From the NCBI GenBank assembly GCA_963749915.1, contig CAVVOP010000022.1, forward strand, positions 320,001-384,000: 64,000 nt of DNA, in the 5' to 3' direction. The position numbers were made by a program, and so were the translations under genes. Below the pieces are notes generated by a model. The model was given only the letters and a program-made list of their open reading frames with translations. It was not told the DNA's origin and ran no database searches. This DNA is from an uncultured cyanobacterium (GTDB lineage Bacteria > Cyanobacteriota > Cyanobacteriia > Cyanobacteriales > Cyanobacteriaceae). Shown here one piece after another: positions 16,312 to 20,363 of this stretch. Each line of letters opens with the position of its first letter. Position 1 is the stretch's first letter.

Positions 16312-17946
16312 ATGTTTTCTTTAACTAAAACCAGCTCACGACAAAGAGAAATCGTTGAAATCGTCTTAGGCAATGGTTGGGATTATATGCGCGGCATCCT
16401 CACCGTGGGAAAATCCGATAAACCTCAACTTCCCCCTCCAGAAGTATTTCGTAAAATTCTCGTACAGTTAGGTCCTTTTTACGTCAAATTTGGTCAATTA
16501 CTTAGCACTCGTCCTGATTTATTACCACCCAAGTACATTGAAGCCTTAACCGCCCTCCAAGCTCAAGTTCCTGCTGTAGCATGGGTATTAATTGAACAGA
16601 CTTTGAGAGAACAACTTAATCAGCCTTTAGAAAGGATTTTGAAGACAATTGATCCAAATCCTGTAGCGGCAGGATCGATCGCCCAAATCCATCGAGGTAC
16701 ATTAATAACAGGGGAAGAAGTCGCCATCAAAGTGCAACGCCCAAATATCGATCGCATTGTCAATCAAGATGTTATTTTAATAAAAGGTATTGCAGAAATT
16801 ATCGCCTTAACGGACTTCGGAAACGATTATGATGTAGTCAATTTAGCCGAAGATTTTACCAAAGCAGTATTGGCTGAGTTGGATTTTCGTCAAGAAGGTA
16901 ACTATACGGAAAAATTACGATTAAATTTGAGTGGTAGTAATTGGTTCGATGCAAAACAATTAGTGATCCCTAAAATATATTGGCAATATACCACCGACAA
17001 AGTCCTATTTATGGAATGGTTAGACGGTCAAGCCATTTTGTCCGCCAATATTCCCGATACCAGCAATAAACGTCAAGAATTAAGCACCCTATTATTCAGA
17101 GTTTTTTTTCAACAAATATTTATCGACGGTTTTTTTCATGCTGATCCTCATCCGGGTAATATTTTCTACTTAGATGACGGTAAATTGGGCATCATTGATT
17201 GCGGCATGATTGGCAGATTAGATCCTCATACCCAACAATTATTAACAGAAATGTTATTAGCCATTGTCGATATTGATGCTCAAAGATGTGCCCAATTAAC
17301 CCTGGAACTATCGGACAGTAACACCGCCAATAGTAATTTATCTCAATTAGAAAATGACTATCAAAAGATGTTGAGAAAATATTACAATCTCAGTCTTTCT
17401 CAATTAAATTTTAGTGAAGTTTTTTACGAAGTCTTAGAAGTTGCTCGAAGTAATAAAATCAAATTACCCGGTAATATGGGATTATTTGCCAAAAGTTTAG
17501 CCAACTTAGAGGGTGTCGCCCGTAAATTTAATCCCCAAATTAACCTCCTTGAAGAAATTAAACCCCTCATGACCGATCTTTTTCGCCGTCAATTTATCGG
17601 TGATACCCCCTTTCAAACCCTTTTTAGGACAGTTTTAGACTTAAAATCAATTTCTTTGCGATCGCCCCGTCAAATAGACGTAATCTTAGATCGTTTAAGT
17701 TCGGAGACATTTCTTTGGAATTTACGCATTAGAGAACTAGAAGGTTTAAGACGTAGTTTAGACGATTCAGCCAATCGACTATCATTTAGTGTCGTTGTCG
17801 GTTCACTAATTATGGGTGCCGCAATCATTTCCACTGGGGCAACCACTGGGCAATTAATATTATTAAGCAATATCCTCTTTACCGTCGCCAGTTTACTCGG
17901 ATTATGGTTAATCGTTAGTATTATCCGCTCTGGAGGACTAAAGTAA
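16312..17946 (+). CDS. ABC1/AarF/UbiB family kinase
   Basis: LGPFYVKFGQLLSTRPDL, AAGSIAQIH, VAIKVQRP, HADPHPGN, DCG; C-terminal TM pair. Confidence 0.93.
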   Translation: MFSLTKTSSRQREIVEIVLGNGWDYMRGILTVGKSDKPQLPPPEVFRKILVQLGPFYVKFGQLLSTRPDLLPPKYIEALTALQAQVPAVAWVLIEQTLREQLNQPLERILKTIDPNPVAAGSIAQIHRGTLITGEEVAIKVQRPNIDRIVNQDVILIKGIAEIIALTDFGNDYDVVNLAEDFTKAVLAELDFRQEGNYTEKLRLNLSGSNWFDAKQLVIPKIYWQYTTDKVLFMEWLDGQAILSANIPDTSNKRQELSTLLFRVFFQQIFIDGFFHADPHPGNIFYLDDGKLGIIDCGMIGRLDPHTQQLLTEMLLAIVDIDAQRCAQLTLELSDSNTANSNLSQLENDYQKMLRKYYNLSLSQLNFSEVFYEVLEVARSNKIKLPGNMGLFAKSLANLEGVARKFNPQINLLEEIKPLMTDLFRRQFIGDTPFQTLFRTVLDLKSISLRSPRQIDVILDRLSSETFLWNLRIRELEGLRRSLDDSANRLSFSVVVGSLIMGAAIISTGATTGQLILLSNILFTVASLLGLWLIVSIIRSGGLK

Positions 17947-18080: not shown

Positions 18081-18109
18081 TTGTCATTTCTAATTTTATG
18101 AGTTAGTAT
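18081..18109 (+). promoter_or_regulatory. sigma70-type promoter for intergenic RNA
   Basis: TTGTCA (18081-86), 17-bp spacer, TAGTAT (18104-09). Confidence 0.6.
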
Positions 18110-18115
18110 GTCTTA

Positions 18116-18390
18116 AGTAAAAAATAGTTAAAGCCGTTCAGGAAGAACAGGAGGTGATGCCTATGATAGATAGTAGTAAGATTGTGGGTTTTCTGGTTAT
18201 TCAAACTCGGCTGTGTGCTGGGGCTGTTTAGTCAGGAAAAGCTAAAAATGTCAAGGACCAAAGGTTTTTGCCTAGTTTTCAGTTTTGCTTGAAATTCCTT
18301 CCAGCAGTCTGAACCTAGAATAACTAAAAAGCCCACGTCAAATAATTAGATGTTTTTTCTACCCTGGGCTTATCGCACTGGGTAGGGACA
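18116..18390 (+). ncRNA. structured RNA / dual-function transcript of unknown class
   Basis: Rod fold: 18184-18202/18318-18336, 18216-21/18301-06, 18232-48/18276-92, 18252-59/18263-70. G-U pairs favour the + strand. 3' hairpin 18357-18387. Ends approximate. Confidence 0.7.
18163..18231 (+). CDS. putative 22-aa micropeptide MIDSSKIVGFLVIQTRLCAGAV
   Basis: AGGAGGTGAT (18149-18158), a 10-nt complement of the 16S anti-SD, just upstream of ATG 18163; TAG at 18229-31. Confidence 0.45.
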   Translation: MIDSSKIVGFLVIQTRLCAGAV

Positions 18391-18500
18391 TTTAACTAGT
18401 CTCCAGAGTTCAATATGATCAAACTTATTTTATTGGTTTAAGAGATAGTTAAGAACTCTTAACAAAATCACAGAAAATAAGTAGCAAAAAAAATTTTTTA

Positions 18501-18509
18501 TGTTATAGT
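18501..18509 (+). promoter_or_regulatory. extended -10 promoter candidate for porin
   Basis: TG-T-TATAGT ~80 bp upstream of the porin ATG. Confidence 0.35.
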
Positions 18510-18590
18510 AGATGAAAAGTAAATCTGTTAACTGGAAAATTTCACCATCAGTAAATAGTAAAACCTTAAAGGTGTGAGGATACCTAAATC

Positions 18591-20363
18591 ATGAAAAGCA
18601 ATTTTTGGAAATCAGTAAAATTAACCCCCCTATTGGTGGGTGCAAGTTTCTTAGCAACCTCCCAGGTTCAGGCTAATGAAATAGCTCAAGTAAATACCGA
18701 AGGTGATGCACAAATCATCAATCAATTAGACGATTACAGTTCCGAAGGTGGTACTTCTTCGAAAGATCAAGTAACCAGCGTGTCTCAACTTAGAGACGTA
18801 TCTCCTACCGACTGGGCTTTTGAAGCTCTCCGCAGTTTAGTTGAACGTTACGGTTGTATTGTTGGTTATCCCGATCGTACCTTCAGAGGTAATCGTGCTT
18901 TAAGTCGTTACGAGTTTGCCGCCGGTTTAAACGCTTGTATGCAACAAATGGAGCGTTTAATTGCCGCCAGTGAGGCAGTACTTAGAGAAGACATCGAAAA
19001 ACTAAAACGCTTAATGGCCGAATTTGAATCTGAGTTAGCCGCTTTAGGTGCAAGAGTTGACAACCTAGAAGGCAGAGTTGCTTTCTTAGAGGATCACCAA
19101 TTCTCCACCACGACTAAGTTGAAAGGAGAAGTCATTATGGCGTTGACCCAGAACTTTAACAGTGGTAACCAAGCTATTTTGGCTGACCGTGTACGTTTAG
19201 CTTTAAATACTAGTTTCACCGGAGAAGATAACTTAGTAACTCGTTTATCTGCTGGTAACGCAGGGGATTTTAACGCTGAGGGTAAAAGTAGATACAGAAC
19301 TGCCGGAGTACCTGTAATTAGTGGAACTACAAACGGCCCTAGTGCAACCTTAAATCAAACTTTTAACCTTTATCCGGGTTCAGATAACGATGTTCAGGTT
19401 GACTGGTTAGCCTACTATGCGCCCATCAAGTTGGGTGAAGATAATCAAATTCAAACCTATTTAGCCGCATTCGGTGGTATTCACAGTGACTACGTTCCAA
19501 CTTTAAATCCCTACTTTGAAGATTATGATGGTGGTAATGGAGCATTGAGTACCTTTGCCTCTGAGAGTCCCATCTATCGTATTGGTGGTGGTTCTGGGAT
19601 AGCCTTTAGCTACCAACTAGGCATTCTACAAAATTTACTCGGTCCTAGCACTGCTACCGTCAGCTACTTCGCCGGTGGAGAACCTTACTCTCCAGAAGAC
19701 GGCCAGGGTCTGTTTAACGGTGACTACTCTGTTTTAGGCCAACTTAACTTCAATGTGAGTGATACTTTCGCCCTGGGCTTTACCTATGTCAACGGTTTCC
19801 ATAAGGCTGACAGTCCCATATTTGGAGCCGGTGCTGGTAGCGGTATTGGTGTTGTTGGTACACAATGGGCCAACCAAAGTAACTCTGAGTTGAACGGTCT
19901 TATCGGGGAGCAATTTCCCGGTGCTACCATTGATCAAAAAGACAAAGCAACCAATACTTATGGTGCACAGGTTGCTTGGCGTGTTACTGATGGTATGAGT
20001 TTAAGTGCCTTCTTCAGCTATACTAGCTTAATCAGAATCGGTCGTGGTAGCGATCAGATTTGGAGTTATGGTGGTGGTGTAGCATTCCCTGACTTATTTA
20101 AAGAGGGTAGTGTTTTAGGTATCTATGCCGGGGTTCAACCATACAATGGTAACTCACAATACTTTATTAACGATGCTGATGGTGTCAGTCGCGAAGTTCG
20201 TGTTGGTCATAGTAGCACACCTGTCCACGTGGAAGCATTCTATAAATATCAGTTAACTGATAACATTTCTTTAACTCCTGGTGTTATCTGGGTTAACTCT
20301 TCTAACCAAGCATCAAACAATAGTCAAGTTATTGGTACTTTAAGAACTACCTTTACTTTCTAA
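18591..20363 (+). CDS. SLH-domain outer-membrane porin (SomA/OprB-like)
   Basis: Signal peptide, SLH (DVSPTDWAFEAL...GYPD..FRG), coiled coil, FSTTTKLKGE, C-terminal RTTFTF. Confidence 0.95.
   Translation: MKSNFWKSVKLTPLLVGASFLATSQVQANEIAQVNTEGDAQIINQLDDYSSEGGTSSKDQVTSVSQLRDVSPTDWAFEALRSLVERYGCIVGYPDRTFRGNRALSRYEFAAGLNACMQQMERLIAASEAVLREDIEKLKRLMAEFESELAALGARVDNLEGRVAFLEDHQFSTTTKLKGEVIMALTQNFNSGNQAILADRVRLALNTSFTGEDNLVTRLSAGNAGDFNAEGKSRYRTAGVPVISGTTNGPSATLNQTFNLYPGSDNDVQVDWLAYYAPIKLGEDNQIQTYLAAFGGIHSDYVPTLNPYFEDYDGGNGALSTFASESPIYRIGGGSGIAFSYQLGILQNLLGPSTATVSYFAGGEPYSPEDGQGLFNGDYSVLGQLNFNVSDTFALGFTYVNGFHKADSPIFGAGAGSGIGVVGTQWANQSNSELNGLIGEQFPGATIDQKDKATNTYGAQVAWRVTDGMSLSAFFSYTSLIRIGRGSDQIWSYGGGVAFPDLFKEGSVLGIYAGVQPYNGNSQYFINDADGVSREVRVGHSSTPVHVEAFYKYQLTDNISLTPGVIWVNSSNQASNNSQVIGTLRTTFTF

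Follow-up and report, generated by a model that had tools for sequence, protein, structure and literature searches.

A single-copy cyanobacterial member of the Ncl0160/Sye_sRNA1 family: a conserved rod-shaped RNA whose micro-ORF may matter more for ribosome loading than for its peptide

The closest described relatives of the element reported here are cyanobacterial small RNAs published under several names. The ncl0160 entry of PMC4734099 gives homologs in 83 of 89 cyanobacterial genomes, with a ribosome-binding site and a predicted peptide of 23–25 amino acids, and assigns 351 dRNA-seq reads to the homolog of Nostoc 7120 (TSS 5442335f), indicating that high abundance is not universal (PMC4734099). 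In Synechocystis the same RNA is tabulated as TU475, antisense to slr1608, with a base mean of 19,056; the unit is listed as antisense only to its neighbouring mRNA, and processing sites fall within the transcript (PMC8682795). Sye_sRNA1 of S. elongatus UTEX 2973 is reported at about 200 nt on Northern blots as the most abundant sRNA under control conditions, dips transiently in high light, and has genes that lie mostly downstream of psbD or cobB (PMC6091082). The start sites of homologs have been mapped in these other organisms, where the RNAs accumulate as discrete species of about 200–283 nt (PMC4734099; PMC6091082). Both transcript and ORF are thus already in print (PMC4734099; PMC6091082; PMC8682795), and the family belongs to the most conserved cyanobacterial small RNAs and, in certain species, to the most abundant ones, without having an Rfam entry. 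A search of the literature outside subscription journals found no functional study of ncl0160, TU475, TU2045 or Sye_sRNA1.

In type I toxin mRNAs such as hok and aapA, a metastable hairpin forms at the start site and the message folds back on itself over a long range. Ncl0160 resembles them in its predicted transient start hairpin and its long-range fold-back, but it has no conserved transmembrane peptide, is present in single copy, is not mobile, and no antitoxin was seen for it. A different parallel is offered by RyeG (yodE), which was likewise labelled non-coding, carries a short ORF, and was revealed as a true small-protein mRNA by its co-sedimentation with 30S subunits (PMC8058203); RyeG is described as prophage-borne and encodes a 48-aa bacteriostatic peptide, whereas Ncl0160 is chromosomal, phylum-wide and has a drifting peptide. 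6S RNA is likewise an abundant, rod-shaped RNA of about 200 nt, differing from ncl0160 in its tabulated gradient profile, and PmgR1/Ncr0700 and Yfr6 are likewise cyanobacterial RNAs of 240–290 nt, Yfr6 with a possible 33-aa ORF.

The locus analyzed here lies in a 64,000-nt stretch (the window) of contig CAVVOP010000022.1, from an uncultured cyanobacterium, and its features are collected in Table 1. It is almost certainly the local, single-copy Ncl0160/Sye_sRNA1, a stand-alone structured RNA that, a few lineages apart, is found in most oxygenic cyanobacteria. A family covariance model built on 57 homologs, the window copy being part of the training set, scores the latter at 132.6 bits as the sole strong match in its own genome. 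By eye, the published Nostoc sequence and logo (supplements of PMC4734099) agree with the family alignment in the SD-GCCC-ATG arrangement, the ORF motif and the rod core. The element shares with Ncl0160, Sye_sRNA1, TU2045 and the Nostoc 7120 RNA the same SD, spacer and ATG, the ORF family, the rod core, the single copy and the family neighbourhoods (psbD or cobB upstream, porin downstream). The window copy departs from these homologs in having 22 codons instead of 23, a basal stem that is AU-rich, a start hairpin that is weaker and an ABC1 kinase gene upstream, and it is devoid of the family terminator motif. What an initial annotation, made from the sequence, had presented as a hidden transcript is therefore a known locus, and the window adds one member to a real, reported family.

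Table 1. Features of the element and its surroundings, in window coordinates (paired arms are separated by a colon).
Feature	Position	Strand	Basis
Inferred transcript of about 275 nt, Ncl0160/Sye_sRNA1/TU475 family	18116..18392	+	Covariance-model match and same architecture in the published Nostoc homolog
Upstream neighbour (context): ABC1 atypical kinase gene	16312..17946	+	PF03109
Downstream neighbour (context): SLH-OprB porin gene	18591..20363	+	PF04966 and PF00395
Sigma70-type promoter-like site: -35 TTGTCA (18081-18086), 17-nt spacer, -10 TAGTAT (18104-18109)	18081..18109	+	
10-nt perfect complement of the 16S 3' end of the same genome, AGGAGGTGAT	18149..18158	+	16S tail comparison
Predicted alternative start-codon hairpin, 18159-18165 with 18183-18189, competing with the rod base	18159..18189	+	Folding
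Micro-ORF: ATG 18163, 22 codons, TAG 18229-18231 (family norm 23)	18163..18231	+	Sequence
Single-stranded AGTAGTA, codons 4-5, conserved at the nucleotide level	18172..18178	+	
Rod	18184..18336	+	Folding, covariation, pairing in sequence
Basal stem, 19 bp, 1 mismatch, 2 G-U	18184-18202:18318-18336	+	
Conserved core with 4-nt bulge (18214-18217) containing codon 18	18207-18223:18299-18312	+	
6-bp helix of the core	18218-18223:18299-18304	+	
Variable apical part; 17-bp stem with 2 mismatches (18233-18249:18275-18291)	18233-18291	+	
Apical 8-bp stem	18252-18259:18263-18270	+	
3' hairpin, arms 18356-18364:18380-18388, probable terminator	18356..18388	+	Pairing in sequence

The initial annotation had also allowed for a known cyanobacterial RNA, which proved right for the family, whereas the candidates it named, 6S, PmgR1 and Yfr6, are ruled out. 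Rfam gives no gathering match in the window (two chance ones, at E 4.8 and 8.3) and nothing on the element in 20 homolog loci. The 6S model (RF00013) has no match on the element, and the true 6S gene sits on another contig of the same genome (G000:C8:320059-320242, 91.2 bits). The published probe primer sites of PmgR1/Ncr0700 map to G194:C1:1,677,989, 1.19 Mb from the homolog of the element in that genome, and the two RNAs have no motif in common. Yfr6 is described from only two Prochlorococcus strains (MED4/SS120), with an ORF that begins at nt 97 and another layout (PMC1242208); its published probes contain no family motif by eye, and it is set apart here by that description.

BLAST detected the element in 33 of 40 relatives, and a motif scan of species genomes yielded at least 120 loci, the named titles among the 80 matches listed being all cyanobacterial. 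Within the same order, the covariance model matched 47 of 49 other genomes, and within the same class 8 of 11, always with one copy per genome; in the rest of the phylum it matched 1 of 90, and this single 41-nt match (E 0.005) is probably due to chance. Among close kin, the model returned no match in G002, G004, G009 and G014, which are fragmented or small, and two weak ones at E about 0.05; together with G146 and G208, these four stand as nearly complete close-kin genomes without a match, and such losses, if real, would make the RNA dispensable in some lineages. A homolog is retained in a reduced symbiont genome (L068). The motif scan of viral contigs returned 0 loci and plasmids gave no match; a mobile element was rejected on these grounds, the only phage matches being of 31 nt at E = 0.09.

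The neighbours differ from homolog to homolog; named by recognizing their translations, they are presumably psbD, cobB or a nadC-like gene upstream, and a porin gene, a pterin dehydratase-like gene or convergent genes downstream. Contig breaks had raised the suspicion of a neighbouring rRNA operon, which was not found, the upstream gene being often psbD. In G194, the homolog (C1:484,775-485,070) overlaps the 3' end of a cobB-like gene and converges on a sugar dehydrogenase-like gene, and L159 displays the locus arrangement published for ncl0160, with the cobB 3' overlap and an antisense orientation to the glucose dehydrogenase gene slr1608. There the RNA has its promoter, its SD and its start within the last cobB-like codons (L159:1627-1700), and because of this overlap the RNA-seq counts of the cobB-like gene (base mean 9409) are probably inflated by Ncl0160 RNA.

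Transcription of the window copy is inferred to start at about 18115-18117, a position placed from the promoter-like site. The letters of this site are those given in the initial annotation, although the site alone is weak evidence, since six such matches occur in 721 nt versus a mean of 2.1 in shuffles. A −35/−10 pair of like sequence is seen by eye at the same position in four close relatives (L006, L008, L009 and L010). The minus strand, where an antisense RNA was sought, has three promoter-like matches, which is chance level. At the other end, the separate 3' hairpin described earlier was confirmed, and the terminator scan did not call it because it has no clean U-tract. A family-wide terminator motif is present in 119 of the 139 homologs with sufficient downstream sequence and missing from the window copy; the clade of the window has swapped this motif for another 3' hairpin. 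In the search for expression, three metagenomic runs contained 5–11% of the words, with assembled contigs that were short and mostly from other strains; one RNA-run contig is the homolog of a relative, and a near-identical piece of 151 nt came from a run that is probably DNA, so that these reads lend no support to expression of the window copy.

The SD claimed ahead of the start codon was found to be perfect, and its duplex with the 16S tail, at −20.1 kcal/mol, is equalled or exceeded at just 1 of 3002 long-ORF starts in the same genome, where the median is −2.9 kcal/mol; SD sites of cyanobacterial mRNAs are mostly weak. GGAGG stands 8 nt from the start in 172 of 173 homologs, an invariance of the start region that is partly imposed by the motif-scan pattern, although homologs found by BLAST or by the model agree too, with few variants.

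Published gradient data also bear on ribosome association. Grad-seq tables (PMC8136920) place 36–60% of the ncl0160 signal in a second peak, in fractions 13-18, compared with 3–13% for four mRNAs and 3–10% for PmgR1, tmRNA and 6S. This peak follows the rRNA row 6803r03 (r = 0.97–0.98) and not 6803r02 (at most 0.15), rows r03/r04 being taken as 16S because the other four rRNA rows, like a large-subunit protein, have their peak in fraction 18. On a single page of the same tables, a value of at least 0.15 in fraction 16/17 is reached by 2 of 19 sRNA rows and by 0 of 18 mRNA rows. The peak might have arisen by binding after lysis. The main text of a Synechocystis Ribo-seq preprint (bioRxiv 10.64898/2025.12.20.695498) does not mention ncl0160. 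The same presumed-16S peak is tabulated in PMC8136920 for ncl0150 (0.325 in fraction 16/17), and the presumed ncl0150 region (L209, about G194:C1:477500-477770) has no GGAGG-type SD.

The plus strand of the element folds at −81.5 kcal/mol (z = −2.93), a value matched by none of 200 shuffles, whereas the minus strand has a z of −0.72, in line with the plus-strand RNA proposed initially. The 19-, 6-, 17- and 8-bp stems of that proposal are all present, but the conserved core extends past the 6-bp stem to a second helix of 5 bp, with a 4-nt bulge between the two. The rod covaries: across 57 diverse homologs, both partners have changed in 18 of the 32 pairs of the consensus, and the covariation score is 0.349, against 0.210 in a shuffle test that kinship inflates and at most 0.128 when the pairing is slid. 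The underlying alignment (A1) retains 57 of 143 anchored rows, leaving aside L024, L025, L029, L047, L061 and L142 as divergent or mis-anchored, along with near-duplicates and five rows with long inserts. The apical rod differs among homologs in both length and sequence. The rod begins about 20 nt past the AUG and buries codons 8-23, the A-rich codons 2-6 staying open, and the consensus fold leaves the SD uncovered by the 3' end.

Also part of the consensus fold is a pairing of codons 7-9 with the spacer and AUG, and folding of partial transcripts suggests that this start hairpin could precede the rod. At P > 0.5 it is predicted in 76 of 86 nascent prefixes versus 8 of 86 full-length folds, and the rod base exceeds the same probability in 77 of the 86 full-length folds. 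In 74 of 86 nascent prefixes, openness of the AUG falls below that in shuffles, and at full length its median is a moderate 0.46. Taken together, these folds are suggestive of a switch in which a nascent start-codon hairpin would give way to the rod in the full-length RNA. The homolog alignment contains one-sided changes in the start hairpin and no compensatory change; the hairpin of the window copy is weak (P = 0.47, with three G-U pairs), as are those of the divergent L196, L198 and L199 (0.02–0.13).

The micro-ORF was confirmed as annotated, at 22 codons one below the published 23–25, a length also seen in L006, and 167 of 172 homologs with a visible stop have 22–25 codons. The stop at codon 24 interchanges among TAA (71), TAG (51) and TGA (1), and the two other frames are broken by stops in 99 of 123 and in 123 of 123 sequences. 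No stop was observed in codons 2-17, where 8.5 would be expected from column frequencies in 87 dereplicated, albeit non-independent, sequences. The micro-ORF is therefore probably read by ribosomes. Its substitution pattern is unlike that of three control gene blocks from the same loci: pN/pS is 0.75–0.93, compared with 0.14–0.23, and pS is 0.21–0.25, compared with 0.58–0.70. A fourth control block (the dehydratase N-terminus) has a pN/pS of 0.92, like the ORF, and was excluded, since the loose pattern that defines it is likely to have drawn in unrelated N-termini (pN 0.53). The pN of the ORF, about 0.19, is near the 0.16 of a real enzyme block; the low pS reflects constraint at the RNA level, which also inflates pN/pS, so that selection on the protein is still compatible with these values. 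Overall, pN/pS is 0.83, running from about 1.0 in codons 2-7 through 0.92 in codons 8-15 to 0.45 in codons 16-23, and in the true frame it lies below both other frames.

The residue changes themselves are chemically radical, with a mean BLOSUM of about −0.75 versus −0.09 to +0.79 in the controls, and radical substitutions fall at codons 2, 7, 10, 11, 13, 14 and 18. Fourfold-degenerate third positions are nearly fixed (Gly9 is GGT in 122 of 123 sequences and Leu17 CTG in 120 of 123). AGT occupies codons 4 and 5 in 117 and 121 of 123 sequences, a bias partly fixed by the search pattern, while 29% of the serine codons of the genome itself are AGT. Codon 18, in the rod bulge, encodes Cys, Arg, Trp, Ser or Tyr among homologs and has become a stop in L196 (G342; TGA) and L199 (G381; TAG), where the rod is kept and the frame beyond runs intact to the codon-24 stop; L195 (G388) and L047 likewise stop after 17 codons. 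Selenocysteine or readthrough at codon 18 was set aside because the codon is TGA in one lineage and TAG in another. In its evolution, this pattern suggests, the RNA and its loading with ribosomes weigh more than the sequence of the peptide. Three family peptides had no Pfam match, and an exact look-up of four in a protein collection returned none. Degenerate copies also occur, L024 having an early stop and L025 a frameshift with a stop at a similar place, and in L028 the 5' half is fused to a porin-like coding sequence, possibly through misassembly, in a genome that is 67% complete.

What is new here is the covariation of the rod, the stop-free frame with its high pN/pS, the gradient peak, in published data, that tracks the presumed 16S rRNA and the predicted swap between start hairpin and rod. 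The reading that we judge somewhat better than even is that the RNA is loaded by the 30S subunit once complete, the subunit sitting against the rod, and that elongation unzips the rod, so that ribosome activity sets the fold and lifetime of the RNA and the peptide is secondary. During transcription, a hairpin would form over the AUG of the RNA itself; once the 3' strand has been made, the rod would displace this hairpin, and a 30S subunit would dock at the foot of the rod, with initiation complexes retained jointly by the rod and the strong SD. Elongation through the micro-ORF would then unzip the rod, which is why the fold and stability of the RNA are proposed to hinge on ribosome activity, and selection would target translatability and RNA shape, with peptide sequence in second place. 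The main rival, proposed in PMC4734099, holds that the RNA is a small mRNA whose peptide of 22–23 amino acids is the effector, the rod merely stabilizing the message and tuning its translation. This is a credible alternative of lower probability. The conservation of frame, length and stop across the phylum speaks for it, as do the lower pN/pS of codons 16-23 and of the true frame and the RyeG precedent of a small-protein mRNA that co-sediments with 30S (PMC8058203), but an effector peptide accords poorly with radical substitutions at seven codons beside nearly fixed degenerate third positions, its best-conserved part, the C-terminus, is lost in two lineages, and the peptide has no Pfam match. 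The micropeptide mRNA of the initial annotation is possible but not favoured by the substitution pattern, and what had been a 'putative peptide' becomes a sharp test that sets RNA shape and ribosome loading against the sequence of the peptide, for which the codon-18 stop variants, as natural test alleles, and the existing gradient signal are starting points.

Ribosome loading could also be the very function of the RNA. As a phylum-wide riboregulator that holds 30S, an abundant RNA with a near-maximal anti-SD duplex, and with its rod at the edge of the initiation footprint, would keep small subunits or initiation complexes parked until elongation, by unzipping the rod, lets them go. We regard this as unlikely, and the low read count of the Nostoc homolog, as published, weakens it; if true, parking would serve to buffer or sense the free ribosomes as light changes, the ORF acting as a release track and not as a peptide source, and would form a new layer of translation control in cyanobacteria, the ribosome counterpart of the role of 6S RNA at RNA polymerase. 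A dual-function sRNA acting in trans, through AGTAGTA as a seed or through a 3' strand freed by translation, such that translation competes with or licenses target pairing, is likewise unlikely: the unpaired AGTAGTA shows nucleotide-level conservation, expression is reported as light-responsive (PMC6091082) and processing sites are listed within the transcript (PMC8682795), but complements of AGTAGTA near starts are not enriched in the one genome scanned (21 of 3002 versus 15.1 expected), rRNA has no unusual complement, and pairing with Yfr1, as in a sponge, is within the shuffle range (90 of 200 as good). The type I toxin-like mRNA with fold-back structure envisaged at first is very improbable. 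Its strong SD, short ORF, long-range fold-back and predicted transient start hairpin are found here, and the peptide of the window copy is fairly hydrophobic (GRAVY 1.18); however, most other traits are missing, for a 15-residue hydropathy window reaches the transmembrane level of 1.6 in just 5 of 87 homolog peptides, the SD is uncovered in the consensus fold, the single-copy gene is absent from the viral contigs and plasmids searched and kept by a reduced symbiont, and the Synechocystis unit is listed as antisense only to its neighbouring mRNA (PMC8682795). Least probable of all, with hardly any weight, is a leader or attenuator of the porin gene, which is next on the same strand in the window and in many homologs; downstream genes differ, being convergent in L014, L017, L020 and L159, and the published homologs accumulate as the discrete RNAs noted above.

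A few further sequence features surround the element. Some 25 nt ahead of the start (18132-18150 in the window), most homologs keep a CCGTTYAGG motif, which could form a small hairpin. A 28-nt direct repeat of 71% identity links the −10 region of the element (18094-18121) to the likely −10 region of the porin gene (18496-18523), and the two promoters may on that account be of the same type. The probable Yfr1 of the same genome (G000:C5, minus strand, about 4176 on the reverse complement) ends in a hairpin with arms CCGCTC...GAGCGGAT, which resembles the Ncl0160 family terminator motif, and a 3' module may be common to both sRNA families. In G006, finally, a match to group II intron domain V lies close to the homolog (L009:2887-2964).
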